A DNA stretch of 64,000 nucleotides from Candidatus Aenigmatarchaeota archaeon (GCA_043814985.1 JBDRJK010000021.1:7253-71252), one strand, 5' to 3'; numbered from the stretch's first letter, positions 1 through 24,607 are shown. The notes: generated by a model not told the origin, from the letters alone. Program-made: numbers and translations.

Positions 1-3000
1 TTCCATCCACAGACTCTCCTTTTCAGCCCTGTCTCTCCATTGAGCCCAAGTGATGCTTGGGAAGTCTGGCAATTCATAAGTCGGTAAAGTGCTTCCACAA
101 GACGAATCAGCAACGCATCTGGAAGCACCATAGCCGTCAGAGGCTATGCAGCCACTAGGCGTGCATGTCCTTGTTCTCTGCCTTTGGGTAGAAGAACAAG
201 AGCCTCCCCCGCATGAGCCGCTAACCCAGTCAGTGCAGGAGCAGGTTGTCTGCTGGCTTTCAGATGCGAAAGACTGCATGACGTCGAAAAGTTCCGGATA
301 ATCCCTTATGTTCCACTCTTCTGTTCCTCCCTGCGGAGCTGGAACGTACATGAATGCTAGGGCAACATCGACTCCCAAGTCCTTCATCTTTTGAAGAGTT
401 GCTTGGTAAAAAGCTACAGTTTTCACAGGACCGTTTTCGTTTCCGCCCCATTCCGTGGCCCAGAGTTCCATTCCTGCGTTATGCGCGTCTGCAACAGCGT
501 CCTCGACGCTCTGCCAATTGCTGTCCCAAGCTACAGAATTATCATATCTTCCATCCAGATAATGGTTAATGCTAATGTAATCAAATGTGTTCTTGTACCT
601 TTCAGCATCGAATACTGGTCCATTGATTGCATAGGGGCTGTCCGGCAGGCTGTACCTGAAAGTTACTTTGGATTCAGGATCGTTGCTTTGTACCACAGCT
701 ACGGCATCGTCCCAGTAGTCCATCCATTGATTATAGAGTTGGGTATCAGAATTTGATTCCACTCTGCCAGCCTCATTCAATATTGAGTAGCTATGCTTTG
801 GATATGAGGCAAGTCCTTTTGTGTAATAGTCTATCATGTTCAGGTAGTATTGCCTGTATGTGGGATTTGTTGCAATCTGGCGCGTAGACCCGCTTATTTG
901 TCCACCTACTTGGAGATAAGGAACTGTCCATAGAGCGCTTGGTGTGATTGTATGAAAGTCAATCTGCACATTTATTCCCTTCTGCTCTGCAACTGTAAGA
1001 ATCTGTCTTAAAGCGTTTAGAGTTGAAGTACTATATTGGCCTAAAACAGGTTCAAGAACTTGCCATATAAGCCTGACACTAACATACTTGATGCCATGCT
1101 GCCTGAACATTTCAAAGTCACTTTCTATTCTGCTGTTGGAAGGTGCATCCCAAAAATAATAGTTAACACCAACTCCAAAACCATCACTTGTTGTACCTCC
1201 AGTACATGTCTGGTCAATTTGAGACTGAAAGTCGACGAGTTCATCGTATGCAGGCTCTGGGCCTCCTGCGCCGTAGATGTTGAAACCTTCGTCCAGTCCA
1301 GTCCTTCTTGTTTCCCATGCCCATGCATATGCCCTTTGCACTATTCCTGCTTCTTCAAATTTCTGCAGGCTCTGTGTATAATGGATTCTATTTTGCTCAA
1401 GGTTTGTGTTGTCGTCCCCGAACTCTATGATCCAGAGTGACTTGTTCCTAGTCTTCAAATCAGATATAGTGTTGTCCCAATGAGACCATCTACCATTGCC
1501 TTCATTTGCATTTGGATTGGACGGGTCCAGATATATGGTTAATGCGAATACATCGAACACGTCATACAATGAATCGCTGTATTTACCACTTCCAGGAGTG
1601 TACGAAAGTGTGAAGCGACATATTATGGTATGTGAGTTATCCACAGACTCTATGGCGTCATAAGTATCCCTTATTAACTGCTCCATAGGAGCCCTTTGGT
1701 CAGCAGTGTTGTACCAAGGCTCGTTTAGTATGGCCCATGATTCAAGAGCAGGATAGTCTTTCAACTCTGCTACTACTGCCTTTACATATCTAAGCCAGTA
1801 ACTTTTTGTTGGATTTAAAAGCAAGCTAAAGTAGTTAGTACCTGCCCATGAGGGGAATCCTAAATTCCAACCGAACTGCGTCCAAAAGTCCAGATTGACT
1901 TTAATCCCATTGTTGTTAGCAGCATTGAGCACCCTCTTTATATTGTTAAGGTTTCCTGTGCTTAGCTGTGCGTTTCCAGAGTTATAATTAGGCTCCATCA
2001 CGCTCCACATTACACGTACAGAGATGTGCTTTATTCCATCGTTGGCAAACCTTGAGAAATCAGCATTCAATTGGCTATCAGACTCTGACCAGGCATTGCC
2101 GCCTGATATATAATTTATTCCCATAGCCATGCAGCTGTCACCGCTGAAGGTAACAGTCGTTGTGTCGCTATCATAACCAGCACCCGCATTTACTGTAACA
2201 GTGGCAGTGCCTGGCGAGGACGAGCTTATGGTCCTAGAGCATTTGCCATTAGCATCAGCTGTGCAGCCGGATCTGTCAATGGTGCCTAAGTTTGTTGAGA
2301 AAGCTATGTATAGAGTTGGATAAGATGGGTTTGTTTGTGCTGTTAAGGTTGATGTTCCACCTACTGGTATTGATGATGGTGAAGCAGAAACTGATAAAGA
2401 TGGAGAGGAGCTTCCACAAGAAGCATCAGCAACGCATCTGCTTGTTCCCAAACCATCGGATGGAGTACAACCAGTAGGAGTGCATGTCCTTGTTCTCTGT
2501 CTTTGTGTAGAGGAACAAGAACCTCCTCCACACGATCTTGATACCCAGCCAGTGCAGGAGCAGGTTGAAGATGCTGGTGGAATAACCAAACCTAAATCTT
2601 TGTAACGTTGCCAGTTCTCATCATCTTCTCTAAGCCAAATAAAGTTGATTATAATTATGTCAGGATCAGATATGGAACGATCATAGCAATATTCAAGGAA
2701 CTCATTGAGCTCAGCTACTTCCGAACTATCAAACTCGTTTCTCTCCCTATAGTCTGCGCCAACCTCAGTGTTCGCCATCCAGGTTACACCGTTATCAATG
2801 AAGTGCTGCATATCAGCCTTTGCACTCTCTACAGTTTCATCATTGAAGTATGCGTGTATTCCTTGGTAGAATTTATTTTGAGGATCATTGATTTTATCGT
2901 AGGTATGCATCCAGAACCTGTCCATAACCAATATATTCGTTATTCCAGCTTGCCGAAGTTTCATTGTCATGTCATCCATAGTGTCATAAAAGTCATAGCC

Positions 3001-5541
3001 ATTGCTTTCTAAGTTAAACCGTGATAAGACGCTGTCCGGACCAGTTAAGGATAATTCATTGGAAAGTTCGTACCAGACCCTGTGAGAATATTCTTTGTTG
3101 TTGGTTTGTTCTAGGTTCTCGACTTGGTTCTGCGTGGAAATTATGTCATTTATTGCAGTTTGATAATTCTGCATGAATCTAACTGCACCTGAAGAATCTG
3201 GAGGATAAACATGATTTCGATCAACAATAATTATCCAATCATCTGGGGTGTTCTCAAGATAGTGTTCTATGTAAGAAAATCTGTATGGATGAACAGTTGA
3301 CGCCCATGAAGGATTATATGGTAGACGGAAAATTTTCATGTTATTTTCACTCATAAGATTTAAGACGTTGTCTATTTCTGATATTGAAGAAAAATATCCA
3401 CTAAAACCAATTAAAGGGATGTTTGTTGAAGTTGTTGTTGGTTCTTCTGATTGTTTACAGCAGCACACACCAGAGGAACAGCCGTTCTGGTCGATGGATT
3501 TTTCATCTGACGAACAGGTGGCTGTTGATGATGGAGGTTTTGTTGTTATCGGGCTTTTGCTTAAAATAATGTCGTCAAAGTAAACCGTCTTTGTAGACTC
3601 TACTACATCAGTATAATGTTTGACAGGTATCCAGTTGAATTCGTCCTGCTTGAACCGAGTCTGTATATTTCTCCAGTTCACAACTTTTGTTCCATCGATC
3701 CACACCTCAACCACTCCGTTTGTCGGATGGCGCACTACATGATATTGCATAGTGTGCCAAACTCCCCTGGTGAAATAAAAATCAGTGATTGCATCTTCCG
3801 AGTCAACTATCATCCCGTTTTCTACCTTTTGTCTGCCTAACTTGAACCTTAGTTCGTTTCCCTCGAATACAGGTTCGATACGCAAAGTGTTCTGTTCGTC
3901 AACATACTCGAACATTAGGCCTTGGAAAACAAACCATTCGTTTACTCCTGTGAGTAAGAAATCTGATGGAAAAAGGATTTTCACTTGTACCCAGTATTCT
4001 GCTTCACTGAGATATTGAATAACCTCTGTTGATCTGGCTGTGGCTGTTTCTCCTGGCGCAGTGACTTTTAGCACCCTGTTTCCACTATTTTCTGGATCAT
4101 AAGCAAAACTGATAGTTTCTGGACGATATATATGACCTTCGCCCCATCCCGTGAGTTCTCCGCCGACCAGCTGTGTCGTCGAAAAGTCATCTTGCAAAAT
4201 TATGTCTTCAGATGTTCCTTCCCCTCCTCCTGAAGTTCCTCCTTCTGCAAGAGCATTCTTCAATACCTGACCCGAAGCTGTTGGAGTTTCCCAATCATAA
4301 GCCAACAAAGCATGATTTTCCCCTTCTGCATTTGCACCTCCACCAGTGTCTTGTATCCTAAGCCACCACCATGCAACATATCCCATACTCCAATCAGTTC
4401 CATCATTGTTTTCTTGTCCGTTGGCGATTCTAGTCATTAGTCTAACAAATTCAACTTCGTCTTGGTTTCTATAATCTCCGCCAAACTCCTGAACCATTAT
4501 CGGAGCTTTATCAAGAACGTAATCCCATCCCCAATCTCTTATTTCATCTTTTATTCCTTGAACTGTATCATGTCCACCGAACTCATGTGCATATTGGTGA
4601 TAAACATAAACAAGGTTTTCTCCATCTAAGAAGTCAATATTAGGATTGTCCCGGATTGGACGAGCATCATGGCTCCACCCTTGAACTGCAACCATAATCA
4701 GATTTTTTGCTCCTGTCGAACGAATAGCGTCTATAGCTAGTTGAATTGCATCCCACCATTCTTCGTCTGTAACATCATGCGGTTCGTTCCAGGGACCAAA
4801 TATGACATAAGGATTGTCTTTGTAAAGGTTGGCTATTTCTTTCCAAGTTTCAATCCAATCATCTATGTTAGGAGGCATTCTCATTAATTGTCCACTGTAG
4901 TCATGCTCATGAGGATATGTAATAGGGTCACCTCTAACCCACCAAATCAATGAAAGATCAGTGTAGATTCCACGTTCAGCTCCCCAGTCAATTGCTTGTT
5001 GCATCTCCAGTCTGTTTTTTCCTTCCTCCCAATACTCTCTAGTGAACGGAACCCTGACATAATTCGCTCCCCATTTTTCTATTTCATCCCAAGCATGTTC
5101 TGTCCAATCAATCTCAGTTGCTGGGTCACGTCCTGGTTTTGCTATCCAATTCAATCCAGGACGGTTTACTCCACGAAGAAACACAACATTATTGTTAGAA
5201 TCCTTGATCCACCTTCCTTCTGTTTTTAATTCACCATCAGAAGGAGGCTCTACTGGCGGTGTTCCAGAAAATCTGCAAGTTCCTGAGTAAGATGCGCCGA
5301 ATTGCAATTGGCATGCTTGGTTGCAATTCTCACTTGGTGTAATATCATCTGGAGGCGTAGTATCATCAGGAATATTGCCAAAGACTGTTGAAATAGCAGT
5401 GTTTATAAGATCCATTGCTTCATGTTCTCCTTCTGTCGTAAAAGCAAGCCCATAGTTTATAATAATCATAAAAGCGCTCGCGCCTAATAATGCTAACAAG
5501 ACAACTGTGAAAAAGCCCCATGTACCTCCCTTAAAGGCCAT
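1..5541 (-). CDS. Giant membrane-anchored multidomain glycoside hydrolase (>=1847 aa, 3' end outside window): pilin-like N-terminus, 4 GH-A/GH5-like domains, lyase/ConA-like domain, TSP1-like repeats, Big_1 Ig
   Basis: Hand translation from ATG 5541 (MAFKGGTWGFFTVVLLALLGASAFMIII) stays open to base 1. GH5 motifs: LRGVN, WGANYVRVP, WNEPH, NLVYVYHQY, PIMVQEFG. Further acid/base and nucleophile pairs: YELSNE/ANTEVG, AILNEPW/WIIEFG, SILNEAG/WATEWG. Not in the ORF track because there is no stop in the window. Confidence 0.93.
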   Translation of the reverse strand, partial: MAFKGGTWGFFTVVLLALLGASAFMIIINYGLAFTTEGEHEAMDLINTAISTVFGNIPDDTTPPDDITPSENCNQACQLQFGASYSGTCRFSGTPPVEPPSDGELKTEGRWIKDSNNNVVFLRGVNRPGLNWIAKPGRDPATEIDWTEHAWDEIEKWGANYVRVPFTREYWEEGKNRLEMQQAIDWGAERGIYTDLSLIWWVRGDPITYPHEHDYSGQLMRMPPNIDDWIETWKEIANLYKDNPYVIFGPWNEPHDVTDEEWWDAIQLAIDAIRSTGAKNLIMVAVQGWSHDARPIRDNPNIDFLDGENLVYVYHQYAHEFGGHDTVQGIKDEIRDWGWDYVLDKAPIMVQEFGGDYRNQDEVEFVRLMTRIANGQENNDGTDWSMGYVAWWWLRIQDTGGGANAEGENHALLAYDWETPTASGQVLKNALAEGGTSGGGEGTSEDIILQDDFSTTQLVGGELTGWGEGHIYRPETISFAYDPENSGNRVLKVTAPGETATARSTEVIQYLSEAEYWVQVKILFPSDFLLTGVNEWFVFQGLMFEYVDEQNTLRIEPVFEGNELRFKLGRQKVENGMIVDSEDAITDFYFTRGVWHTMQYHVVRHPTNGVVEVWIDGTKVVNWRNIQTRFKQDEFNWIPVKHYTDVVESTKTVYFDDIILSKSPITTKPPSSTATCSSDEKSIDQNGCSSGVCCCKQSEEPTTTSTNIPLIGFSGYFSSISEIDNVLNLMSENNMKIFRLPYNPSWASTVHPYRFSYIEHYLENTPDDWIIIVDRNHVYPPDSSGAVRFMQNYQTAINDIISTQNQVENLEQTNNKEYSHRVWYELSNELSLTGPDSVLSRFNLESNGYDFYDTMDDMTMKLRQAGITNILVMDRFWMHTYDKINDPQNKFYQGIHAYFNDETVESAKADMQHFIDNGVTWMANTEVGADYRERNEFDSSEVAELNEFLEYCYDRSISDPDIIIINFIWLREDDENWQRYKDLGLVIPPASSTCSCTGWVSRSCGGGSCSSTQRQRTRTCTPTGCTPSDGLGTSRCVADASCGSSSPSLSVSASPSSIPVGGTSTLTAQTNPSYPTLYIAFSTNLGTIDRSGCTADANGKCSRTISSSSPGTATVTVNAGAGYDSDTTTVTFSGDSCMAMGINYISGGNAWSESDSQLNADFSRFANDGIKHISVRVMWSVMEPNYNSGNAQLSTGNLNNIKRVLNAANNNGIKVNLDFWTQFGWNLGFPSWAGTNYFSLLLNPTKSYWLRYVKAVVAELKDYPALESWAILNEPWYNTADQRAPMEQLIRDTYDAIESVDNSHTIICRFTLSYTPGSGKYSDSLYDVFDVFALTIYLDPSNPNANEGNGRWSHWDNTISDLKTRNKSLWIIEFGDDNTNLEQNRIHYTQSLQKFEEAGIVQRAYAWAWETRRTGLDEGFNIYGAGGPEPAYDELVDFQSQIDQTCTGGTTSDGFGVGVNYYFWDAPSNSRIESDFEMFRQHGIKYVSVRLIWQVLEPVLGQYSTSTLNALRQILTVAEQKGINVQIDFHTITPSALWTVPYLQVGGQISGSTRQIATNPTYRQYYLNMIDYYTKGLASYPKHSYSILNEAGRVESNSDTQLYNQWMDYWDDAVAVVQSNDPESKVTFRYSLPDSPYAINGPVFDAERYKNTFDYISINHYLDGRYDNSVAWDSNWQSVEDAVADAHNAGMELWATEWGGNENGPVKTVAFYQATLQKMKDLGVDVALAFMYVPAPQGGTEEWNIRDYPELFDVMQSFASESQQTTCSCTDWVSGSCGGGSCSSTQRQRTRTCTPSGCIASDGYGASRCVADSSCGSTLPTYELPDFPSITWAQWRDRAEKESLWME
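91..247 (-). repeat. Cys-rich TSP1-like repeat, copy B (copy A at 2410-2566)
   Basis: TCSCTDWVSGSCGGGSCSSTQRQRTRTCTPSGCIASDGYGASRCVADSSCGS, colinear with copy A at an offset of 2319 nt. Confidence 0.9.
2410..2566 (-). repeat. Cys-rich TSP1-like repeat, copy A
   Basis: TCSCTGWVSRSCGGGSCSSTQRQRTRTCTPTGCTPSDGLGTSRCVADASCGS. Confidence 0.9.
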
Positions 5542-5596: not shown

Positions 5597-8227
5597 TCAA
5601 CTTAAGTACAACAAAAATTCCTCGTACCTAATCATGCCTTCGCTCTCTCCTGCTAATGCTATCGTATATGTTCCTTCAGGTGTTCCTGGTTCCACTTCAA
5701 TTGTCATCATAGAACCGGGCGGCCCTTCAACAGGGTTAGTGTCAAAGCTGACAGTTATTCCTGTTACTTGTGGGTAAATGGTATAGCTAAGGTAAATGGG
5801 CTTTCTGTCAGGGCCCAAATAATCTATTGTTATGAAAGTTTCTAGGGTTTGGGTATCATCGAGGCTCTTGTCTATTTTCACTAATTGCGATTTGACTCCT
5901 TCCTGATTCTCTGCTTTATCAACTGAGAAATACCTCACATAGCTTGTTCCCCCCGACAGGATGAATGTGGAATAATATATTGATTCAGAAGGGTCACACC
6001 AGTCATTATTAGCATAGCAATAAAAAGTTTTATCACAGCCACTAACATCATCCGAGCATTTTAGCGATATGCTGACATCTCTGTTATACCAGCACTGGTC
6101 AAGGCAGGTCTGGTCATTGCACTGTATTGTTGTTATTGGTGGGAAAATGTCAGCACATTTTATATCATAGCTACAAGAGTATGAACCTTCAGTACATCTT
6201 TCAAAGTCCTCGCAGTCGTCATGGAGATTAAATTCATTGGAAACTGTTGCGCCATTGCACAGATAGCTGGAGCCAGAGCAATACCTGTCTTGATAGCTCA
6301 CGTATACGTCATCCCCACAAGCAGTTCCGTCGCGGCACTCATAGACAGCATCGTAATTCTCATCGCAAAGATATGTGTCTTGCCTGTATAAGTCAGTGGG
6401 GCATGTTGAGCTCGAGCCAGTACAGTATTCTGTTAAATCGCAGGTTCCTCTAGAAGCCCTGCATGGAAAATTAGATTCCCTGTAGTTGCAGCCATCACAG
6501 CAAACTCCAGACGAGCATTCGCAGTCACAGCTGGGATCATAGCTACAAGAGGATGAACCTTCAGTACATCTTTCAGTGTCTGAGCAACCATCATAAAACT
6601 GGTAGTTGGTCCAGTTTGTTGCGCCATTGCACAGATAGCTGGAGCCAGAGCAATGTCTCTCATTATACCTCACGGCTACATCATCGCCACACTCAGTTCC
6701 CCAATAACAACTATAGTCAGTCTGATAATAATAATTGCAGATATAGCTGGAAGACCTGAAATTGCCGCTGGTGTCGCAGCATGGTCCAGAGCCTGGTGCG
6801 CAATCATTTTGTGTGATTTGTGTAAAGGTGACAGTCGTTGTATCAGGTTCATAGCCACCTGCATCTGCTGTCACAGTTGCAGTGCCTGCTGTATTAGAGG
6901 TTATTGTCACAGAGTACTTTCCTGTGCTGTCGGCTGTGCCTGATGATCTTGACAGAGTGCCTAGAGTTGTTGAGAAAACTATGTACAATCCTACATTAAC
7001 CGGGTTTGAGTATGCTGTAAGTGTTGATGTTGTTGTACCGTCTGCTGGTACGGAGGATGGTGAAGCAATCAATGTTAATCTAGGTTCTCCTCCAGAACTT
7101 TGACATGTTCCACTAATACAAGTATCAGTTCCAGAACATGTTCCACAGCTTCCACTACAACCATCAGACCCACAATTCTTTCCTACACAGTTGGGTGTAC
7201 AATCAAAATATGCGATAAATGTACCTACCACACCTGCCAATGCGTTGAATGACGGCAAGGGGCTAAAAGTCTGAGTGTAACCGTTTGATGCCCACATATA
7301 ATCTAAAGCATAGCCGGGGTAGTTAGAAGCTGATATTGATACATAGGTGCCAGCAGCAACTGTTATTGTTTTGCTTGTTGATGTGCATTGGCTGTTAAGA
7401 CATATCTGGCCCCAGTTCTGAGGCGAAACCATGATTGTATATGTGGCATCGTCTTCAGCAATAAGATTGCATTCCCCGTTTTGACATTCATATCCATTTG
7501 AACATGTTCCGCAGTTAATCGTCCCTCCGCAACCATTATTCTGAACTCCACATTCGTAACCAAGACTCCAGCACGTGTTAGGACATTCACACTTGCAGTT
7601 TTCATTACAAAAACCATCGCCAACACATAGGTTATCATTTCGTATTGTAGTACCACAGCCACCAGACATGGTACAACCAGATTCACAACATTCACTTCTA
7701 CAATTGCAGAATTCCTCTTCCCAACAGGAACAATAGAAGCTTGGGTCTTTATTGTATCCAATTCCAAAATTTACACAACTATAGTGGCATGTCTCGCCAG
7801 CACAAAAGGGAAAACCATTACAAAGGTTTATATTTTGACCAATACCAGCTACACTATATCCTTCTTGTTCGCATTTGTAATCGCATGGCTGAACAGGACA
7901 TTGTGCCGGACAATTACAGTAATCACAATGAACATCATCCCAGCAGTAACATATTATCCATTCAGAACCAAGACGTTCAGAGCAGTCACTAGGACCAATC
8001 TCATGACAATTATAGCGGCATGTCTCGCCAGTACAATAAGGAAAACCACTACAAGGATTTGGATCTCTAAAACTACATCCTCCATAATCATAACCACTGC
8101 ATGCATCAGTACATTCTGAGGCAATAACCCCCGTTGAAAATAAGAGAAAGATGTTTAAGGATAAAAATAATACAAGGTATTTACATATTGGATTTTTACT
8201 GATATTTATCACCATTGAAACCTTCAT
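5597..8227 (-). CDS. Secreted Cys-rich adhesin-like protein (876 aa) with Big_1, disintegrin-like, internal repeats and a C-terminal Ig-like domain
   Basis: Sec-like signal LVLFLSLNIFLLFSTGVIA; very Cys-rich; ASPSSVPADG...FSTTLGTL...AGTATVTA (Big_1); CCDGCNY...CRASRGTCDLTEYCTGSSSTCPTD (disintegrin-like). Confidence 0.85.
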   Translation of the reverse strand: MKVSMVINISKNPICKYLVLFLSLNIFLLFSTGVIASECTDACSGYDYGGCSFRDPNPCSGFPYCTGETCRYNCHEIGPSDCSERLGSEWIICYCWDDVHCDYCNCPAQCPVQPCDYKCEQEGYSVAGIGQNINLCNGFPFCAGETCHYSCVNFGIGYNKDPSFYCSCWEEEFCNCRSECCESGCTMSGGCGTTIRNDNLCVGDGFCNENCKCECPNTCWSLGYECGVQNNGCGGTINCGTCSNGYECQNGECNLIAEDDATYTIMVSPQNWGQICLNSQCTSTSKTITVAAGTYVSISASNYPGYALDYMWASNGYTQTFSPLPSFNALAGVVGTFIAYFDCTPNCVGKNCGSDGCSGSCGTCSGTDTCISGTCQSSGGEPRLTLIASPSSVPADGTTTSTLTAYSNPVNVGLYIVFSTTLGTLSRSSGTADSTGKYSVTITSNTAGTATVTADAGGYEPDTTTVTFTQITQNDCAPGSGPCCDTSGNFRSSSYICNYYYQTDYSCYWGTECGDDVAVRYNERHCSGSSYLCNGATNWTNYQFYDGCSDTERCTEGSSSCSYDPSCDCECSSGVCCDGCNYRESNFPCRASRGTCDLTEYCTGSSSTCPTDLYRQDTYLCDENYDAVYECRDGTACGDDVYVSYQDRYCSGSSYLCNGATVSNEFNLHDDCEDFERCTEGSYSCSYDIKCADIFPPITTIQCNDQTCLDQCWYNRDVSISLKCSDDVSGCDKTFYCYANNDWCDPSESIYYSTFILSGGTSYVRYFSVDKAENQEGVKSQLVKIDKSLDDTQTLETFITIDYLGPDRKPIYLSYTIYPQVTGITVSFDTNPVEGPPGSMMTIEVEPGTPEGTYTIALAGESEGMIRYEEFLLYLS
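6245..6654. repeat. Intragenic direct repeat with an identical 38-bp core (6245-6282 = 6617-6654), period 372 nt
   Basis: tgttgcgccattgcacagatagctggagccagagcaat occurs twice; peptide repeat CGDDVxV...CSGSSYLCNGAT...ERCTEGSxSCSYD. Confidence 0.9.
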
Positions 8228-9272
8228 TCTTTAGATACATTTCAAATATAATAGAGTCATCTTTGACAATTTTGGTAACCAATATTTTTCCGTCATACCT
8301 GTAAAAATCAAATCTATTAGGATTATCTTCTTGTGAGGTTAAATATTCCAGTTCTGCATCATCTGAAGAAAATGGGAAAACCATTGCTTTGATTAAGGAG
8401 AATATGTTTTCAAAATCTGTTTCTGAAAAAATAATACTGGAAATTCCTGAGTCTAAATCATAATTTATTACGAGGTTTTCTTCCGAACCCTCACAAAAGA
8501 TATTTAGAGAGTATTCATTCTGATACATGCGTATATAATCTAGTCTGCAAATACTCAAAATCTGAAAAGCTATTCTAGCTTTTTCATCAAAAGGGAGTTT
8601 CTCATCGACTATTATTGGGAAAGAATATGATGTTTTGTTCAAATTAAAGTTTAAAATTGTGTCATAGTAATTACAGGTAAGTTTTACAGACGAAAACATC
8701 TCTTCATTATGAACAAATTCATCATAATCATAAGGCGAGCAATTGTAGAATTCCTTTATGTCTTCATGAACAACATCAGTAAACTCTTCATCTCTACCGT
8801 TTTCAAGCTTAAAGTTGTCAACATCAAAATAATATATCTTAACTATTCCATTATCACAGTAAAAGAACAGATTGTTGTTTTTGGAGTAAAGGAAGTCGCA
8901 GTTGTTATTAGTCAAATCATTGAATACACCCGGTTGTTCCCTCAAAAAAGACCAGCCGTTCATGTCACTAATAATATTTCCGTTTTCAAATTCGGCATAG
9001 TATGGTCTGTCATTGCAAATCATCCAGAACTTGTCGCTGTCTAGGCTTAACTCCTCTCTTTTAATGTCGCAGAACTCTAGATCAGCTTCTAATAATTCCA
9101 AAACAGTTTCTCTGCCTAATGAATCTTGAAGGGAACTGTCCTTTGGTTCCCCATACAAATAATTTATTGACAAGAATATCGCAAATACTATTATCAGACT
9201 TATCAACAATGGCACAAAAACATTCAAGTCCAGTTTCAAGGCTCCAGTAGATTTTCTTTTTCTCATGGGCAT
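8196..9272 (-). CDS. Hypothetical membrane-anchored acidic protein (T4P locus)
   Basis: 358-aa ORF; basic N-terminus then one TM helix; overlaps both neighbours. Confidence 0.8.
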   Translation of the reverse strand: MPMRKRKSTGALKLDLNVFVPLLISLIIVFAIFLSINYLYGEPKDSSLQDSLGRETVLELLEADLEFCDIKREELSLDSDKFWMICNDRPYYAEFENGNIISDMNGWSFLREQPGVFNDLTNNNCDFLYSKNNNLFFYCDNGIVKIYYFDVDNFKLENGRDEEFTDVVHEDIKEFYNCSPYDYDEFVHNEEMFSSVKLTCNYYDTILNFNLNKTSYSFPIIVDEKLPFDEKARIAFQILSICRLDYIRMYQNEYSLNIFCEGSEENLVINYDLDSGISSIIFSETDFENIFSLIKAMVFPFSSDDAELEYLTSQEDNPNRFDFYRYDGKILVTKIVKDDSIIFEMYLKNEGFNGDKYQ

Positions 9273-14150: not shown

Positions 14151-14456
14151 TTACTGTTTGGGTGGGCAGGAGCAATAAACTTCCAAGTCTTTGACAGTTT
14201 GAATTTTTAAACGTTCGAAAGCCAATGTATACAAATCCCCTCCACTCGGGTCTTCTTCAATGCACTGTATATCTTGAATTACACTGATGCTTGTGGGACA
14301 GCCATATGCCCTGTATTTAATGCAGCAGTTTCTCATTTCATTCTGCAGATTTAAATCTTCACCAAAAGGAAGTATGTTTCCTGTTACCAACAGCGCTCCT
14401 ACAACTATAACAATTAAGAAAATTACAAGCAATACCAACTTATCTAAAGCCATCAT
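14151..14456 (-). CDS. Small Cys-rich pilin-like protein
   Basis: N-terminal TM helix, 6 Cys in the globular part, ATGA overlap. Confidence 0.75.
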   Translation of the reverse strand: MMALDKLVLLVIFLIVIVVGALLVTGNILPFGEDLNLQNEMRNCCIKYRAYGCPTSISVIQDIQCIEEDPSGGDLYTLAFERLKIQTVKDLEVYCSCPPKQ

Positions 14457-14767
14457 ATTTTAGCCTTACAAAGGTTTCTACAATTATCTATGTCCCAATT
14501 TGACATGTCGTCGTCAGGGGGTTTCCCAAGGGCAGTTGCACAGTTCTCATTCACAGGGTATATCTCATTGTTTGCTATAACGTTTTGACCTTTACCTTCT
14601 CTGTAGTCTCCAACTCCCCAGTAAATACAGAACTGCCTGAAGTCTATTTGATTGCCTGTGTCCTCCCCGAAGGAGAAAACAGGATTGACCACAATTATCG
14701 CTATTACTAGGAGAATAATGACTACAAATATCAAACCTAAAAGCACCTCTAATTCTAAGCCCTTCAT
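14453..14767 (-). CDS. Small pilin-like protein
   Basis: MKG|LELEVLLGLIFVVIILLVIAIIVV; 4 Cys. Confidence 0.82.
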   Translation of the reverse strand: MKGLELEVLLGLIFVVIILLVIAIIVVNPVFSFGEDTGNQIDFRQFCIYWGVGDYREGKGQNVIANNEIYPVNENCATALGKPPDDDMSNWDIDNCRNLCKAKI

Positions 14768-14771: not shown

Positions 14772-16043
14772 TCACGTTATACAATTAGTGCACCAAATGC
14801 TGATGGTTGTGTCATACTTGTCAACGCAAATTGGATATTCCACCGTTCCTGCAATTATATTAAACCAGTTTTTGACTGAAACTATGTACGTTCTCACTAG
14901 GGTCTCATGACCCAGTTTTCCATTGGCAGTAATTCCGCCACCAATCTTGATTGTAACAGGAACACGACCTTGACCTTGACACCATCTACCTTCTGTAATT
15001 TTTGATGAAAGGCAATCCTGTTCAGACAGACATGACTCATCATCAGTTATGGTAGTACCTGAAAAAAGGTCTCTTAACTTTTGCATGGTAAAGGGACTTT
15101 GTGTTGGTTGTATGACTACAGTCGCACGATAGACTTCCCTGGCCTCTTCATACCAATGACCGATAATATCGGTCTTTCTGGTGTTACTTAATACATCAGC
15201 AATAAAATCAAACTTATCTTCAGGCCTATTTACTGGGATTTCCTCAAAATGTAACTCGTACTGCAGATTGGTGGGATACCACACTGTACCGTAGATGTAC
15301 TCTTTGCCGCTTTCTAATACCTTGTTATAAATCCATTCAATGTTGTCCCTACCTTGATCTCCACCATCACAAAAATCATCCCCAACATTGCTCCCACCGT
15401 CACAGTGTCTATCCCAATTTCCTATATTGTTCGCATTAGGGACAAAGCAAGCATTGTTGCCAAACTCAGTTAAAACGCCATCTATGGGGTCTGCAAATTC
15501 ATCCGAACAAATGTACTTATCATCTAAAGTCCTGTCCTTCAAGTTGTAGTTTACGCAGATCTCGTCAAGGAGCGGTATGGCTGTCCCACCCTCTTGGCAG
15601 AAATTACATCCTTCAGTAAGGCTTCCTGTTCCTCCTGGATTATTCCTACCCGCTTCAAGCTCGAATCTTTTAATGTCTATTAGGCATTTTGTGCCTAGGC
15701 AGTTTTTGCCGTTGCCAATATCCCTGGTTTCAGAAAAACCCTTGGATATAAAATCATCTGAAATGGTATTTGCTATTTCACATGCAACCTCGGAAGGCTG
15801 TCTTGGTCCTGCATTTCCTGAATACCTATCAAAGTAATCATCAACATACTCTAGCGGTCCCAAGGCATCCTCTTTCGAAATGTCGAACTCATTACCAACA
15901 TCGTACCCCGGAACTGTTCTGCCAAGAATATCAATGAGCGACTCCTTTGTGACTATCTGGAAAAGGAAAATAGCAAAGGCTATTAACAGAACAAGGAAAA
16001 GGATTTTCGGAAGGTAATCAATCAACGTTCCCATTACGCCCAT
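14772..16043 (-). CDS. Membrane-anchored Cys-containing protein, paralog of the N-terminal half of 16541-19504
   Basis: Shared blocks QPSExACxIAN, CQEGGTAIPLLDExCVN, FGNNxCxVPN, NWDxHCxGG. Confidence 0.82.
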   Translation of the reverse strand: MGVMGTLIDYLPKILFLVLLIAFAIFLFQIVTKESLIDILGRTVPGYDVGNEFDISKEDALGPLEYVDDYFDRYSGNAGPRQPSEVACEIANTISDDFISKGFSETRDIGNGKNCLGTKCLIDIKRFELEAGRNNPGGTGSLTEGCNFCQEGGTAIPLLDEICVNYNLKDRTLDDKYICSDEFADPIDGVLTEFGNNACFVPNANNIGNWDRHCDGGSNVGDDFCDGGDQGRDNIEWIYNKVLESGKEYIYGTVWYPTNLQYELHFEEIPVNRPEDKFDFIADVLSNTRKTDIIGHWYEEAREVYRATVVIQPTQSPFTMQKLRDLFSGTTITDDESCLSEQDCLSSKITEGRWCQGQGRVPVTIKIGGGITANGKLGHETLVRTYIVSVKNWFNIIAGTVEYPICVDKYDTTISIWCTNCIT

Positions 16044-16107: not shown

Positions 16108-16503
16108 CTATGAGCACTTGTTGTCAGACCCGCAACTGCCCATTATGCAGTCAGCATCTGTCATGCAGCCGCAGAACGGCTGAAAATCCCCAGGATATAC
16201 TGTTATGCATCTTGTGCCGTCTTCTTGGTTTAGGCAATCTTCATGGGTCTTGCAAATCTCCATTTCCCTGTCATATTCACTGAAACGTTCGGGATCATAG
16301 CTGTAATCATTGTCAGCGTTCAAATCAGTGTGACACCCAGGGTCTTCCTTGTCAACCAACATGTCATTATCGTTGTCCCTTCCGTCACTGCATTCCGGAA
16401 TTTTTTCTGACTGATTGCCCATCCAGCTTCCTACCAGCACGGCTAGAAACACTATTAAAATAATGAAAGCCATTAAAACTATAATGTCATTGTCGCCTTT
16501 CAT
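16108..16503 (-). CDS. Pilin-like protein with an Asp-rich putative Ca-binding loop and a small Cys domain
   Basis: MKG|DNDIIVLMAFIILIVFLAVLV; ECSDGRDNDNDMLVDKEDPGC. Confidence 0.78.
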   Translation of the reverse strand: MKGDNDIIVLMAFIILIVFLAVLVGSWMGNQSEKIPECSDGRDNDNDMLVDKEDPGCHTDLNADNDYSYDPERFSEYDREMEICKTHEDCLNQEDGTRCITVYPGDFQPFCGCMTDADCIMGSCGSDNKCS

Positions 16504-19534: not shown

Positions 19535-19747
19535 TCAAGCTGGTATAATTGCGCATCCGTGGGTCAAGGCCTTGAATATGTTGCCGAATGGTATCCAGAA
19601 CATGGCCCCGCACACTATCTTTCTTACAAAGGTCCCACCGAAGAATATGGGATCTATTAAAAATACAAAAACAACCAGCCCTATGAGTACTATAACCATT
19701 ACTACTATCACTGATGTTAAATGTTCTGTCATATCCATACAAATCAC
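19535..19747 (-). CDS. Small pilin-like membrane protein (alternative start 19738)
   Basis: Hydrophobic helix; ends LTHGCAIIPA, similar to its neighbour. Confidence 0.7.
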   Translation of the reverse strand: MICMDMTEHLTSVIVVMVIVLIGLVVFVFLIDPIFFGGTFVRKIVCGAMFWIPFGNIFKALTHGCAIIPA

Positions 19748-19983
19748 AAAGGAACTAAATCACACGATTTATGCAACGCACCAACAAACAATTTTAAAGC
19801 AAAGTTTGCATTTTCTCCCCCGAAAAAATTCTCGAGCAGCGTGAAAGCAAAATTGCAACTCCACTTGCCAGGGCATATCCCCCCGAAAAAGTTGCAATAC
19901 AGTATAGCGAACAACAAACTCAGGACTACTATAACTGCTATATTTTCTACGATTATGTGGTACAACCACGATATGTCTGCCAT
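19744..19983 (-). CDS. Small pilin-like membrane protein
   Basis: Hydrophobic helix; ends LHKSCDLVPL; GTGA overlap. Confidence 0.7.
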   Translation of the reverse strand: MADISWLYHIIVENIAVIVVLSLLFAILYCNFFGGICPGKWSCNFAFTLLENFFGGENANFALKLFVGALHKSCDLVPL

Positions 19984-19990
19984 TCAATCA

Positions 19991-20155
19991 CTATATGATG
20001 TTTCCGAAAAACGTGCTCATTATGTTTGCCAAAAATGCGAGCGGGCCCTCAGGAGGTCCGATTTTGAATCCCATGTAAAAACTTATTATAGCAAATAACA
20101 TAATCAAGGCAAGTGCCAATAAAACTGCCTTTTTTATCAACTCTTTGGATATCAT
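19991..20155 (-). CDS. Small hydrophobic pilin-like protein (54 aa, not in ORF track)
   Basis: MISKELIKKAVLLALALIMLFAIISFYMGFKIGPPEGPLAFLANIMSTFFGNII; fills the operon gap. Confidence 0.7.
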   Translation of the reverse strand: MISKELIKKAVLLALALIMLFAIISFYMGFKIGPPEGPLAFLANIMSTFFGNII

Positions 20156-20159
20156 CAAA

Positions 20160-20291
20160 TCACGGCTCTATAATGTTTGTTACATCCAGGTAACCGAATA
20201 TAAGCTCGTTAGCGAACAAAACCATAAAAAGCACTATTATGACTGCTACTATTATCCAAAAAAGCATCTCCTGAAGATCTAGTCCTTTCAT
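20160..20291 (-). CDS. Flp-sized pilin-like protein (43 aa)
   Basis: MKG|LDLQEMLFWIIVAVIIVLFMVLF with Glu at +5; ATG lies 2 nt after the platform gene stop. Confidence 0.8.
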   Translation of the reverse strand: MKGLDLQEMLFWIIVAVIIVLFMVLFANELIFGYLDVTNIIEP

Positions 20292-20293
20292 GC

Positions 20294-22375
20294 TTATCCC
20301 ATGGGCTCCAATAAAGCTGCAATCGAGCTTCCGAACATTGCGTATGTTACTGTCCAGCTTATGATATAGATTACTATTCCGAATAATAAAATCATCCATA
20401 TGTTCTGCCTGACGCCAACAGGGTCATCCCCATATTTGACGCCATTCAGGAAGTATGATAAGAGGACAGCTGTCTCGATCATGTATATCCCTACAACCAG
20501 CTGGAAGAACGTTGGTGAAACTGGCATTTCACCTCCCATTGCCCAAGGTATCATGAAAACTGACTGTGCCGCGTTCATTCCTCCTGATGCTGAAGACATT
20601 ATGCCCTGCATTGCTGCACCTAGGTTTGTCAGTATCTGGATTATTATCACTGCCAGAGTAACTGTGACACCGGCTACCATTGGGGCAAGGAACATTGCCA
20701 GGAATTTCATGCTGGTTATTGTCTCGCCGAGAATCTCCTCTATTTCTTCCTTGACTTCATGAACGTCCTTGAGGTATCTTGAAATTATTACCATTGAATT
20801 GGAGGCAGTCTTGATGCTTTTTTTGGAAGACTGTATTACTGTCTGCATTATTGAGTGGATTAATTTTGAGGGATAGTACCAGAGAGCTCCTACTTCCTTG
20901 TCAAACAGGGCTTCCTCGAAAGTGTAGCCGAACCTCTTCATGTTCAAGCTTACTATTTCGAACATGTCCGCTATTTTCATTTCTTTAAGGTTGGCCCTTG
21001 CCTTATCAATAGCAAGTTCCAGAGGCAAGCCTCCTGATAATGAGTTCCCCAGTTGGAACAGCGCTGTTGCGAACTCGTCCTCTATCTTTTCAATGTCCCT
21101 TCTTATCTTGATTTTCTGGTAGCTGTCCAAAAAGGTATATACTACAATTATCAGTGCGATACCCAGTATCAGCAGCAAGGAAAAGTTAACTGAGATGTAA
21201 ACTTCTGGGTCGCCCATGCCCATGACGCCTGTAAAGATGAAGGGTATTGATATTAAGATTGCTATTGGCAGAATAGGAATGAACCTGTTTCCCAAAGAAA
21301 ACTTTCCCATGGGAGGCGTTCCCTTTGCCTTTGAGATGTCCGGGGGGGAGAATGTTGGTGGCTTGGATGATAGGATGTAATTAACAATAAAGTAAAGTGA
21401 GACAGGTAATAAAATGTCATAACCGAAGAAGACAAATGAAGGCTTGACAACATCTGCTATGAATATCAAGATAATTGGAAACAAGATAAGGCCCATTACA
21501 GGTAGCAAAATACCCATTGCGTATATCAGCGTCATTGGCATTCTTAGGCCTGCTGCATAGTGCCTGGCCCTCTCCCTTGTACCGTTCAATATAACATTGA
21601 TTGTTTCCTCGTAAACCATTTCCCTTCTTGCTTCCTCAACAATCGACCCTCTCAGAAGGTTAAGGGCCTCAGAGAATTCCTTGTTGTTGTCCTTCCACTT
21701 ATTGATGTAGTCAATCAAGGCATAATCAGCAGAAGCGTACTTGCCTGTTTCAATGTCCCACAATAATTTTCTCAAATCCCAGGCCAGCGGACCCTCCAGA
21801 TATTGGGAAGCAAACCTCACAGCACCCTCCAAGTTAGGTGAGGACCTCATGTAAATGACCATGTAAAGGATTGCCAACACAGAGTCAGAGGACATTTTCA
21901 TCTTCATTGATTTTGACATTGTGTCAGGATAATTGTAGAAATACCAGAAAACTACAAAAACAAGAATACCGCCGAACACAGAAAAAACTATGTCAGTCCC
22001 TATGATGATAAGGAGAATTAAAAGAGACAGGGAAATTAAAGTTGCTAATAATGTTAAAGAGTAGGCTCCCTTTGGTGTTGCATTAATGTAACCTGCCCTT
22101 AGCGATGACATGAGTCTGGCTGATGTTTTATCGTCAGGCTTCATGGGAAGAATTCTTTCAGCACGAGAGCATGCCTTCTCGTATAATGTCACTGGCTTCT
22201 GTTCCAGCTCTTCTAGAAAGGTCAGATACTCTGTCGGATAGGGAAAGAACTTCTCTCCTTTAGGCATCTGGATGTCTGTTGTCTTTAGAGCTCTCCTAAT
22301 CTGTTGCCTTTTCAGTTCTCTTGCCTTTCTCTGAGCCTCTTCAATTTTCTTCTTATTTTTCTTTTCAAAAACCAT
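20294..22375 (-). CDS. Type IV pilus/T2SS F-domain membrane platform protein (TadC/PilC-like)
   Basis: 693 aa polytopic; SSPNLEGAVRFA and IEDEFATALFQLGNSLSGGLPLE helical domains; adjacent to the ATPase. Confidence 0.88.
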   Translation of the reverse strand: MVFEKKNKKKIEEAQRKARELKRQQIRRALKTTDIQMPKGEKFFPYPTEYLTFLEELEQKPVTLYEKACSRAERILPMKPDDKTSARLMSSLRAGYINATPKGAYSLTLLATLISLSLLILLIIIGTDIVFSVFGGILVFVVFWYFYNYPDTMSKSMKMKMSSDSVLAILYMVIYMRSSPNLEGAVRFASQYLEGPLAWDLRKLLWDIETGKYASADYALIDYINKWKDNNKEFSEALNLLRGSIVEEARREMVYEETINVILNGTRERARHYAAGLRMPMTLIYAMGILLPVMGLILFPIILIFIADVVKPSFVFFGYDILLPVSLYFIVNYILSSKPPTFSPPDISKAKGTPPMGKFSLGNRFIPILPIAILISIPFIFTGVMGMGDPEVYISVNFSLLLILGIALIIVVYTFLDSYQKIKIRRDIEKIEDEFATALFQLGNSLSGGLPLELAIDKARANLKEMKIADMFEIVSLNMKRFGYTFEEALFDKEVGALWYYPSKLIHSIMQTVIQSSKKSIKTASNSMVIISRYLKDVHEVKEEIEEILGETITSMKFLAMFLAPMVAGVTVTLAVIIIQILTNLGAAMQGIMSSASGGMNAAQSVFMIPWAMGGEMPVSPTFFQLVVGIYMIETAVLLSYFLNGVKYGDDPVGVRQNIWMILLFGIVIYIISWTVTYAMFGSSIAALLEPMG

Positions 22376-24607
22376 TCAAACACTCGAATATTTTTTAAAC
22401 CATTCCAGCCATTGCTTGAAAATCCTGTTGCTGTCAATAAAGCCCAAGTCCTCTCTTGAGCTTCCAGCTATCTTGTGGAACATCTGGTTGGCTTTAATGG
22501 TTGTTTCGGCCTCTAACAGGTCAGGCTTGTTTTTACTGTTTGCAATCCTGACTATTGTCTCAAGAATCTTTGACCTCAGGTTGATGTTGTCCCAGACTTG
22601 ATCCCACCTTCCAGCCCATCCAGGAACCCTGTTGGAAATCTGGTTAAGGACATAGGACTCGCCGTTCAACAAGGTGTCTGTTGGCTTCAGTGTGTCCTCT
22701 GTGGAGTCATACTCCAAAAGATTGACAAAGCCTCCCTCGTCCACGGGGTCCTTTTTCCAGTGCTTCCTCACTTCAGTGACTTCAACCACTCTCCTGAATG
22801 TTCTCAGGCCGTCTGATGTTCTCAATTTATTGCAGATAACAATGAAGTCAACAGCCTTGAAGCTTGTAGGCGGAACTCCCAAGTCATTGACCAGCCTGTC
22901 ATATACTCCGTAGGCAGACTCGCCGTGCACAGTTCCAGCAACAACATTAGCCATTGCGCCTATTCTCATGGCCTCGAATAGGGCCTTTGCCTCCATACTT
23001 CTGATCTCACCCAAAAACAAGCAGGAGTCACCCAACCTTAGAGAAGTTCTTATGACTTCCTCTGCAGGCAGTTCCAATTCAACCCTTGTTATAACTGATC
23101 TTGATTTGAGCCTTTCAATATTATATCCTAGATTCCTCAGTTGCTCGACTGGAAGTTCCAACGTATCTTCTGAGGTGATAATCCTGTTATAAGGAAGTAT
23201 CTGAAGCATCATGCTTCCCAACAAAGAAGTTTTTCCAGCGCCCCTTGTTCCTGCAACTAAAATAGTTCTTCCGTATGAAGCAACAAACCACATCAATCCT
23301 CCAAACAAAGAATTGAAGTATTTGTTATTCATGAACAATGGGAAGGTCCATGGTTTGAACCTGTGCCTTCTCAATGCAAAGCCTAATCCATCTGGAGATA
23401 GTCTTGGGTTGATAGCAGCAACCCTTGCAACGCCCCCCTGTATTAGCAACTCTGTATCTAAAACAGGGTTTGCCTCATCCAAAGGCCTGCCTGATAATAG
23501 CTTGAAACGCGTTGCCCACCTGTCGCCGTCCTGCCTTGTTGGGACAAGGTTGGTCTCACACTCCTCATAATCTTGGTGATAAATAAAAACAGGAAGGTTT
23601 CCCATTGGTGAGTTGATGAAGATATCCTGTATCTTATCATCTTTCAATAAGACCTCGATTATGCCTAAACCAGCAGTGTACCTTGTTAATATTTCTGCGA
23701 GCTTATCCAGCTGGCCCTCTTTGAAAGTCTTGCCAACCTCCTCTGCCAAATCTCTCAATAAGTCCAAGCTCAAGGTATGGAAGATTTCCCTCATTCTCTG
23801 CTGATCGCCTGTTTCCAGTTCCCTTGGCCTTCTCTCCTCCAGTACTCTTCTAGCTGCATCAAGAAGATTGTACTCGTCCTCGTCCAATTTAAACTCAGGG
23901 GGAACAGCATGGTAGATGTATCTGACTTTGTCAGGAACCTTGAATATCTCAACATCAGTGTCACCGACCTTATACCTTGCAACAGTCTCGCCTGGTGGCG
24001 GCTGGGCCATGAATTTGGTGTACATGAAGTTCGGTCTTATGGTAGGCTGGAAGAATTTCCTGTACAAAGTCCTGTCGCCAATATGATAGCCTGACAAGTA
24101 GGGTATTGACCTATCAATCAGCTCTGTCTTTTCCAAAAGTTCTTTCAAAGGTATCAGGGCATTCTCAAGATAGTGGCTTATGCACTTGTTGTACTCGTCA
24201 GAAACCATCTTAGTTTTCAAATGCCTTATCTCCCTTGTTAAATTAACATAGCCTCCAATCGGATCTCCCCTTAACTGTAAAGTTACTAGGTCTCTTAACC
24301 ATCCATACCATTGCGGCAAATATCTGGAGCACTCGCCGGTCGCAATGTTCCTCACTGACAATATTTTCTTCTCCTTTACAGCATGCGTTATTATCTGAGC
24401 AATCTCCTTGAGCATTTTAGTCTGCTCTAAATCATACTCGTACTCCCTTGTCTCTGCAATGATAATGCTGACAACTCTTTTTTCCTCTATGAGCTTCTCA
24501 ACTATTCTTGCCATCACAACATCAGAATCCTCAACAGTAAAGCCGAACACTGAGCCTAAGCAGCTCATCCTCAGAACCCCATCTTTGACTTCTGTCTCAA
24601 AAACCAT
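22376..24607 (-). CDS. Type II/IV secretion (pilus assembly) ATPase, VirB11/TadA family
   Basis: Walker A GTRGAGKTS, Asp box EDTLEL, SLRLGD...LGEIR, His box GTVHG. Confidence 0.95.
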   Translation of the reverse strand: MVFETEVKDGVLRMSCLGSVFGFTVEDSDVVMARIVEKLIEEKRVVSIIIAETREYEYDLEQTKMLKEIAQIITHAVKEKKILSVRNIATGECSRYLPQWYGWLRDLVTLQLRGDPIGGYVNLTREIRHLKTKMVSDEYNKCISHYLENALIPLKELLEKTELIDRSIPYLSGYHIGDRTLYRKFFQPTIRPNFMYTKFMAQPPPGETVARYKVGDTDVEIFKVPDKVRYIYHAVPPEFKLDEDEYNLLDAARRVLEERRPRELETGDQQRMREIFHTLSLDLLRDLAEEVGKTFKEGQLDKLAEILTRYTAGLGIIEVLLKDDKIQDIFINSPMGNLPVFIYHQDYEECETNLVPTRQDGDRWATRFKLLSGRPLDEANPVLDTELLIQGGVARVAAINPRLSPDGLGFALRRHRFKPWTFPLFMNNKYFNSLFGGLMWFVASYGRTILVAGTRGAGKTSLLGSMMLQILPYNRIITSEDTLELPVEQLRNLGYNIERLKSRSVITRVELELPAEEVIRTSLRLGDSCLFLGEIRSMEAKALFEAMRIGAMANVVAGTVHGESAYGVYDRLVNDLGVPPTSFKAVDFIVICNKLRTSDGLRTFRRVVEVTEVRKHWKKDPVDEGGFVNLLEYDSTEDTLKPTDTLLNGESYVLNQISNRVPGWAGRWDQVWDNINLRSKILETIVRIANSKNKPDLLEAETTIKANQMFHKIAGSSREDLGFIDSNRIFKQWLEWFKKYSSV

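Follow-up and report, generated by a model that had tools for sequence, protein, structure and literature searches.

A locus of about 28 kb in the genome of a tiny archaeon from groundwater (Candidatus Aenigmatarchaeota) probably encodes a lineage-specific type IV filament system of this phylum, which would present adhesins and degradative enzymes by way of pilin modules, a reading that we hold with moderate confidence. Most of the locus lies in a stretch of 64,000 nucleotides (nt) (GCA_043814985.1, JBDRJK010000021.1:7253-71252; C21:7253-71252 of a genome of 808 kb in 21 contigs, 91% complete), hereafter called the window, and comprises a secretion ATPase, a platform protein, a fixed block of proteins termed A to G and three distal genes, the last of which encodes a multi-enzyme protein of 2106 amino acids (aa). 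The reading draws on gene identities, on synteny with relatives (genomes, contigs and loci are denoted by G, C and L numbers), on conservation of the dipeptide K-G ahead of a hydrophobic helix and on fusions of pilin modules with unrelated domains. DPANN archaea depend on cell contact or external polymers and their surface machinery is poorly known, and an ordered locus of ~28 kb conserved in a family of the Aenigmatarchaeota offers candidates for how such tiny cells may bind or degrade what they contact. No published description of the locus was found in a literature search, the scope of which ended before the supplementary tables S4 and S5 and figure S10 of PMC13705601, where DPANN loci may be listed.

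The filament locus and its assembly machinery

Positions 1 to 24607 of the window hold 19 open reading frames (ORFs), all on the minus strand and separated from their successors by gaps of -32 to +64 nt: the secretion ATPase, the platform protein, four micro-ORFs and 13 proteins anchored N-terminally by a hydrophobic helix. The machinery and the fixed block are encoded as follows:

22376..24607, minus strand: secretion ATPase, 743 aa, first ORF of the locus, with PF00437, Walker A motif and solved relatives
20294..22375, minus strand: platform protein, 693 aa, PF00482 in two stretches, gap to the ATPase gene 0 nt
14453..14767, minus strand: pilin-like protein A, 104 aa, [KR]G in 5/6 orthologues, tblastn matches in 3 loci
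14151..14456, minus strand: pilin-like protein B, 101 aa, K-G in 3/6 orthologues, the local copy starting MMALDK without K-G
11575..14133, minus strand: large N-terminally anchored protein C, 852 aa, no domain recognised, orthologues (six) of 824-1034 aa
11051..11542, minus strand: pilin-like protein D, 163 aa, K-G in 2/6 and K-S in 1/6 orthologues, the local copy beginning MSE directly at the helix
10650..11048, minus strand: pilin-like protein E, 132 aa, K-G in 4/6 orthologues
10147..10653, minus strand: pilin-like protein F, 168 aa, M-K-G invariant (7/7)
9263..10150, minus strand: protein G, 295 aa, conserved N-terminal module, C-terminal cargo varying in relatives

A preliminary description of the window had announced just such a set of 19 co-oriented, tightly packed genes with an ATPase, a platform protein and many N-terminally anchored products, and the eight starts it had listed, at which K-G or K-A precedes a hydrophobic helix, read as given (MKG at 20291, 16503, 14767, 11048, 10653 and 10150, MKA at 14133, MAFKG at 5541). 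Equally confirmed was its statement that the window is devoid of matches to archaellin, FlaH-type proteins and prepilin peptidase, for which genes were found elsewhere in the genome: an archaellin-like gene on C1, a FlaH-type gene on C13, which sits beside separate ATPase and platform genes, and a prepilin peptidase on C11. Its delimitation of a type IV pilus locus to positions 1-24607 was right as to a filament locus and too narrow as to extent, since the locus runs past base 1 with the remainder of the 2106-aa gene, five pilin genes and an Alba gene. The last six, co-oriented with the rest, are found 1.2 to 3.8 kb past the window start, and between the 2106-aa gene and the pilin genes there is a 465-nt gap with a convergent ORF of 115 aa.

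By a strict class-III-like rule (start codon, then [KR][GA], then a hydrophobic 18-mer), in which we take K-G to be the criterion of a class III or prepilin-type N-terminus, 11 of the 40 ORFs retrieved genome-wide fall inside the 28.5-kb locus, that is, inside 3.5% of the genome.

The ATPase scores well above the cut-off of PF00437 (52.7 bits vs 24.9), bears a Walker A motif GTRGAGKT at residue 453 and, following an extra N-terminal domain of ~220 aa, aligns from residue 221 onwards with its best solved relative, the archaeal GspE 2oap (E 1e-31), with FlaI (4ii7, E 5e-16) and likewise CpaF among the other solved relatives. PF00437, 2oap and the Walker A motif mark it as a GspE/FlaI/TadA-type ATPase of the type IV filament superfamily. 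The polytopic T2SSF platform of this superfamily is recognised by a small margin (PF00482, 25.6 bits vs a cut-off of 25.2; 22.7 and 21.7 bits per domain in the genome-wide scan), both T2SSF domains lying on one polypeptide with eight hydrophobic segments. An A24 prepilin peptidase is encoded in the genome, outside the locus (PF01478, 42.5 bits, cut-off 26.5; C11:82298-82642, open frame of 273 aa). Five secretion ATPases exceed the T2SSE cut-off in the 808-kb genome (C19, C15, C1, C21, C13), which, judged by these matches, may thus encode up to five type IV filament ATPases; three of the four further ones (C1, C13, C19) adjoin platform genes split in two.

A search of public genomes with the ATPase returned 17 loci, 15 of them at 54-94% identity, with those labelled by organism all belonging to Candidatus Aenigmatarchaeota, and the remaining two from Hadarchaeota (36%) and Nanoarchaeota (40%). 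Of the 371 genomes of the phylum, 348 have a full-length orthologue (52-84% identity), as do 97 of the 98 high-quality ones and 162 of 170 genera. The gene order ATPase, platform protein, a variable set of large N-terminally anchored proteins, and A-B-C-D-E-F-G was kept in 6/6 compared genomes of one family, with sizes of ~100 aa for A and for B, 824-1034 for C, 152-714 for D, 132-406 for E, 161-191 for F and 285-1671 for G. Further on, the order F, G, pilins, Alba, pilins recurs in seven of eight genomes, the contig of the eighth ending inside G. Five genomes from other families gave a mixed picture, with a shorter N-terminally anchored string ending in pilins in G195 and G138, three such genes in G248 and none in G304 and G034, from which it follows that the ATPase is phylum-wide and the long locus limited to part of the order.

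Pilin modules and their cargo

Protein G is the first of two putative carriers. Its first ~290 residues form a conserved module with 29 invariant columns, which 20 of 42 genomes of the order (8/15 of those of high quality) encode within open frames of 236-1672 aa, and [KR]G stands ahead of the helix in 6/6 compared orthologues and in 18/18 N-termini recovered from the 20 genomes (two N-termini were not recovered). What follows the module differs from genome to genome. Nothing is attached to it in the present genome (295 aa) and in G017 (279 aa), and elsewhere the module is continued by a GH39-like domain (G016, E 4.5e-8), by seven LVIVD repeats and a papain-family protease (G012, Peptidase_C1, E 3e-35), by a dockerin-like insert and cysteine-rich repeats (G011), by a ConA-like lectin domain (G024, Laminin_G_3, E 1e-24) or by Ig-like repeats that are visible in the alignment only, without Pfam support (G007); the 907-aa form of G013 showed no recognised domain. 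Among 5.8 billion proteins, four longer forms of G were found, one of them of 1102 aa and annotated with VWA domains. In the relatives, a pilin-like module and an unrelated functional domain are joined in one chain, which is what defines a modular pilin, and from these sequences protein G looks like a carrier pilin with interchangeable C-terminal modules. The slot directly 3' of the G module, which encodes cargo in relatives, is occupied here by free-standing genes. A linker of ~35 aa ahead of the GH39-like domain of the G016 protein resembles residues 70-118 of the 2106-aa enzyme, which precede its first glycoside hydrolase family 5 (GH5) domain (18/49 identical, E 3e-6 for that single comparison; recovered in a second search). 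An AlphaFold2 model of G built from six sequences was poor, with a predicted local distance difference test (pLDDT) value of 54.5, and was left out of the fold searches.

The second carrier is the pilin family beyond the window start. Its five paralogous genes encode proteins of 99-136 aa with the N-terminus MKG-I/M-ELPI, a sixth paralogue lies on C8, and 41 of 42 genomes of the order contain the family, with one to nine matches each. Sixteen sequences from five genomes align with K2 and G3 invariant (16/16) and with four Cys as well as a D-x-D-x-D-G-like loop conserved; the AlphaFold2 model (pLDDT 84.1) has a helix spanning residues 8-31 and a head that is small and mostly helical. These proteins matched no curated pilin model, and their identification as pilins of the type IV filament superfamily rests on the invariant K2/G3 and the helix of the model, that is, on an N-terminus of class III type, together with their small size, their copy number, the linkage to the machinery and the prepilin peptidase in the genome. 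TATA-like boxes (TTTTATATA) were located ~30 nt upstream of three of the five genes, without statistical control.

A conserved F/Y-D-A/V-D/N-x-D-G loop in the heads of these pilins has the look of a calcium-binding loop, and the heads end in C-G-C-x; helical and cysteine-rich, they are unlike the beta-sheet heads of known pilins. The Alba gene (L002:4257-4580, minus strand; PF01918, 76.7 bits), of the chromatin- or RNA-binding type, is situated between the third and fourth pilin genes, 2.7-3.0 kb beyond the window start; it stands between pilin genes in seven of eight related genomes, and in the distant G138 an Alba-like gene occurs close to the pilus genes. Directly beyond the last pilin gene follows a full-length 16S rRNA gene (L002:1700-3285, plus strand, 1324.7 bits), flanked by tRNA genes at L002 1125-1195 (plus) and 3349-3420 (minus); non-coding stretches at the equivalent position in relatives may be the 16S rRNA gene as well. 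A further tRNA gene of ~90 nt at 45492-45583 of the window (minus strand, Rfam 52.7 bits), to which ARAGORN assigned the four-letter anticodon 'cata', probably contains an intron.

Fusions of the pilin module to large partners also occur outside the locus. A protein of 2371 aa encoded on C19 (G000:C19:5815-12930, locus L079), away from any ATPase, consists in its residues 1-105 of a complete pilin module (hhalign 99.5%, E 4e-22), followed by two PA14 domains and a Peptidase_M64 domain, and is thus a modular pilin in the sense given above. Further matches of the pilin profile fall at the starts of open frames of 848, 552, 548 and 396 aa from relatives, and its residues 41-115 match within an 881-aa frame of G030. 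Two more large proteins of this genome begin with M-[KR]-G and a helix, one of 1333 aa with four lectin domains and one of 715 aa with a beta-propeller.

Within the fixed block, the B orthologue of G016 is matched by the pilin profile (E 1e-6). In three genomes (the present one, G002 and G003) B and D are leaderless, as is E in two of the three, and these copies start one to three residues ahead of the helix (MSE-, MTE-, MME-); having lost the leader, they would need no peptidase. A complex prediction for the soluble parts of D, E, F and G scored 0.09 vs a mark of 0.32, which is uninformative either way. Protein C has Cys and Trp residues invariant across its six orthologues and belongs to a narrow family, with 159 cluster representatives at E <= 0.001 among 1.84 billion proteins, 87 of them at E <= 1e-30. 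It matched no Pfam or NCBIfam model, Pfam searches with 10 of the 159 relatives were without a meaningful match, no usable match was obtained in the ESM Atlas, and its own structure model was poor.

Variable and distal genes and the readings of the locus

Between the platform protein and the fixed block lie four micro-ORFs and three variable genes:

20160..20291, minus strand: micro-ORF, 43 aa, MKGLDLQ and a hydrophobic helix, positional orthologues in G002 and G003 beginning MKP and MRV
19991..20158, minus strand: micro-ORF, 55 aa, one hydrophobic helix, equivalent position in G002 and G003
19744..19983, minus strand: micro-ORF, 79 aa, hydrophobic helix, four Cys, positional recurrence
19535..19747, minus strand: micro-ORF, 70 aa, conserved C-terminal motif, tblastn matches in 6 related loci at 27-53% identity
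16541..19504, minus strand: variable N-terminally anchored protein, 987 aa, 5.9% Cys, without K-G, no Pfam match
16108..16503, minus strand: small pilin-like protein, 131 aa, MKGDND and helix, 7.6% Cys, weak matches in two relatives
14772..16043, minus strand: variable N-terminally anchored protein, 423 aa, without K-G, one domain in common with the 987-aa protein

The domain common to the 987-aa and 423-aa proteins is also found in equivalently placed proteins of two relatives. The micro-ORFs (19535-20291), each with one or two hydrophobic helices and with positions kept in two relatives, had been called 'micro-pilins', a label that is unsupported: K-G occurs only in the first of them and gives way to KP and RV in its orthologues, hence is not conserved, and by their sequences the four are small membrane proteins.

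The distal genes follow protein G:

8196..9272, minus strand: genome-specific N-terminally anchored protein, 358 aa, no Pfam match
5597..8227, minus strand: genome-specific secreted protein, 876 aa, 10% Cys, Sec-type N-terminus, Big_1 and Invasin_D3
1..5541, minus strand, continuing for 779 nt past the window start (L002:6473-12793): multi-enzyme protein, 2106 aa, GH5, M14, lyase-like and Big_1 domains

In the 876-aa protein Big_1 exceeds its cut-off (44.7 bits), and Disintegrin and an OmpL47-type barrel stay below theirs. The 2106-aa enzyme begins with MAFKG and a hydrophobic helix of ~25 aa, followed by a spacer, the linker and the first GH5 domain; GH5 was matched in four stretches (152.5 bits), Peptidase_M14 at the C-terminus (95.6 bits) and Polysacc_lyase PF14099 with 40.5 bits, Big_1 remaining below its cut-off. 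The motif NE[PLA] at residues 252, 828, 1273 and 1589 and HGNE at residue 1890 are what we take to be the GH5 acid/base residue and the M14 zinc ligands, respectively. Its first GH5 domain is of the same family as the GH5 domains of relatives (LKTEGRWIKD here vs LH[IT]EG[RK]YI[KM]D there). Two near-identical cysteine-rich modules of 50 aa (residues 994-1043 and 1767-1816; ~2413-2562 and 94-243 of the window, minus strand) flank enzyme domains and read C-S-C-T-x-W-V-S-x-S-C-G-G-G-S-C...R-T-C-T-P; they are reminiscent of thrombospondin type 1 repeats and matched no Pfam model. In a genome of the same genus (G001:C7:1-15465, L036), two GH5 matches were seen in an open frame of 5155 aa that bears a Sec-type signal, and since the contig starts inside this frame it is possibly longer.

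In the mechanism that we propose, a PibD/FlaK-type peptidase encoded on the other contig would first cleave the pilins after K-G, and the ATPase and platform protein would assemble a filament from the small cysteine-rich MKG-I/M-ELPI pilins. The fixed pilin-like set A, B, D, E, F and G together with the membrane-anchored C would accompany this machinery, and onto the ~290-aa module of G, which may be located at the filament tip, genomes have variously grafted hydrolases, a protease, lectins or vWA domains. G being bare here, the 2106-aa enzyme occupies the following slot and, having K-G and a long hydrophobic helix, would be held in the membrane or the filament. We infer that the distal genes make use of the filament, on which the 2106-aa enzyme may be displayed. 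The filament would present adhesins and degradative enzymes to a surface, a polymer or a partner cell, and might so serve in contact with a host or in the degradation of polymers.

A number of results weigh against this reading, and most of those that concern the large proteins favour the alternative of a surface-protein island beside a pilus operon, in which the 987-, 423-, 852-, 358-, 876- and 2106-aa proteins would be ordinary Sec-inserted surface enzymes and adhesins, near the pilus genes merely by co-regulation, and entry into the filament would be restricted to the small pilins. Thus GH5 genes, present in three of five relatives examined, are all unlinked to the locus on other contigs, and all four of these GH5 proteins, the 5155-aa frame among them, start with a short Sec-type signal that stops right ahead of GH5; the N-terminus of the 876-aa protein looks Sec-type too. 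The 2106-aa enzyme has K-G and the helix and no pilin module: the pilin profile misses it, its residues 1-110/130 are without relatives except for the linker motif, and residues 1-130 gave no match to proteins of 1158-3686 aa. Across the 17 related loci it is matched by this linker motif only, the 358-aa gene has no tblastn match, and the 876-aa gene has two short weak ones inside other variable proteins of two relatives. K-G is absent from the 987-aa and 423-aa proteins and from all six orthologues of C, with K-A in the present genome only, and C is probably a signal-anchored protein and not a pilin. TATA-like boxes ~30 nt upstream of the internal 987-, 131- and 423-aa genes and of the 2106-aa gene (pattern script, no statistical control in a genome of 40% GC) suggest more than one transcript, a start also being predicted ~30 nt upstream of the ATPase gene; no RNA sequencing runs are listed that match positions 14001-24000 of the window, the three matching DNA runs coming from two studies (groundwater, biofilm). 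Other points bear on the filament itself: K-G is missing from B, D and E in 3, 3 and 2 of 6 orthologues, none of the locus proteins scanned matched a curated pilin family of Pfam or NCBIfam, and the long N-terminally anchored string behind the ATPase appears in only two of the five more distant genomes. The pilin head has no solved counterpart, as Foldseek found nothing in the PDB at E <= 0.001 and the best VIA-align Z was 3.2, and a search of PDB sequences with the pilin profile gave at best E 0.25, to an archaeal 'Flagellin' chain. Against the island speak the covalent joining of large cargo in G to a K-G module conserved in the locus, the complete pilin module at the start of the C19 protein, the hydrophobic stretch of ~25 aa directly after K-G-G in the 2106-aa enzyme, from which the short Sec signals of relatives differ, and the position of C, kept in 6/6 genomes. 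We consider the island rather unlikely. The preliminary description had taken the large genes for a display system combining glycan hydrolases with disulfide-rich modules, and had proposed synteny as a means of detecting variable cargo. The inventory was accurate, as glycoside hydrolase, lyase-like, peptidase, Ig-like and cysteine-rich modules were all found; variable cargo is borne out by the G fusions, and the locus is conserved and linked to the ATPase in relatives. The 358-, 876- and 2106-aa genes have no linked orthologues there, and the unlinked, Sec-type GH5 proteins of relatives and the Sec-type start of the 876-aa protein do not favour display either, so that the earlier interpretation is supported in part. 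The episymbiotic or predatory role that it had suggested would be one candidate use of such a filament.

The filament reading can be extended to a catalytic pilus, in which G and the MKG-IELPI modules would be interchangeable carriers, the same machinery would hold the 2106-aa enzyme with its five catalytic domains through a prepilin-type helix, and the near-universal ATPase of the phylum would drive an enzyme-presenting fibre attacking, or feeding on, polymers or the envelopes of partner cells; this extension is put forward tentatively, as a possibility and not an expectation. If true, it would be an archaeal counterpart of modular pilins and of cellulosome-like display. A short cell-bound assembly in or under the envelope, bindosome-like or a pseudopilus, holding enzymes and binding proteins for nutrient capture like that proposed for sugar-binding proteins in Sulfolobales, would accord with the many different K-G proteins and sugar-releasing hydrolases of the locus, with class III signals on functional non-pilin proteins of archaea (documented in the text of PMC13705601) and with a weak match of the ATPase to BasE in NCBIfam. 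That match, however, reaches 50.6 bits vs a cut-off of 1000, the locus proteins scanned contain no substrate-binding-protein or ABC-transporter domain and so lack what distinguishes a bindosome (Bas), and five to six small promoter-bearing pilin copies fit a polymerised filament better, which makes this assembly improbable. An archaellum or a DNA-uptake (Com-like) pilus is more improbable still, to a degree that we hardly reckon with it: FlaI is the top NCBIfam model of the ATPase, but with 123.9 bits vs a cut-off of 550; the order of ATPase, platform protein, pilins and four more pilin-like genes is one which we take to recall comG operons, yet nothing in the locus suggests DNA binding, and archaellins, FlaH and an equivalog-level FlaI are all wanting there, the FlaH-type gene having another ATPase and platform for neighbours on C13.

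Comparison with known systems

Several known systems share features with the locus. In the bindosome of Sulfolobales, and in other archaea, class III substrate-binding proteins are proposed to ride on a filament base (PMC13705601, Sivabalasarma and Albers, 2026), so that functional, non-structural proteins with a prepilin-type N-terminus are common to both; its cargo, however, consists of binding proteins beside ABC transporters, unlike the hydrolases, proteases and lectins inside the filament locus described here, and the words 'hydrolase', 'glycoside' and 'enzym' are absent from the main text of that study. According to the same text, DPANN archaea rarely show an ordered type IV filament locus and their pilins are scattered. 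The Epd pilus or system 1 of methanogens has many minor pilins and large adhesin-like proteins, and system 1 pilins are described from many DPANN genomes (PMC13705601; PMC4858521). The present locus resembles it in this and in being an archaeal pilus operon of many genes, but whereas system 1 has two platform genes, a form encountered here at C1 and C19, both T2SSF domains are united in one protein of 693 aa, and Epd pilin, EppA and DUF2341 found no match in library scans of the locus proteins.

With minor-pilin tip complexes the locus has in common that D, E, F and G stand in fixed order, the last being the largest and most variable; similarity in sequence or validated structure is lacking. 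Such complexes are GspH-K of type II secretion and FimU-PilVWX with PilY1, in which there is a large member or partner. They are also named in the text of PMC8179133. Cohesin/dockerin pairs as in cellulosome-type display were not found, neither cohesin PF00963 nor dockerin PF00404 having a match in this genome (91% complete) and dockerin-like stretches occurring in relatives only.

Closest are the bacterial modular pilins, of which more than 1200 proteins in 264 architectures have been recorded, including lectin, vWA and peptidase modules, with PilB (vWA module) and PilC (lectin module) of Streptococcus sanguinis as examples (PMC8179133, Raynaud et al., 2021). Here as there, a class III pilin module, a linker and a functional module are joined in diverse architectures, and vWA domains, ConA-like lectins and peptidases on G or the pilin family correspond to modules in the text of that census. 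The differences are that the host is a DPANN archaeon, that the carrier modules match no known pilin family, that cargo exceeds 2000 aa, and that GH39-like and papain-type catalysis is added, along with a separate gene for four GH5 domains and M14. The census used a bacterial pilin signature and mentions archaea 0 times in its text, and the text of the 2016 census of archaeal systems leaves DPANN and Aenigmarchaeota unmentioned (PMC4858521). Because the carrier modules of G and the pilins, as well as protein C, are unmatched by curated libraries, library-based censuses can be expected to miss the system. On present sequence evidence, the modular-pilin principle known in bacteria seems to recur here in a new lineage, on new carrier families and with cargo that is mostly catalytic; the idea of modular pilins would thereby reach archaea as well as bacteria, and catalysis as well as adhesion.

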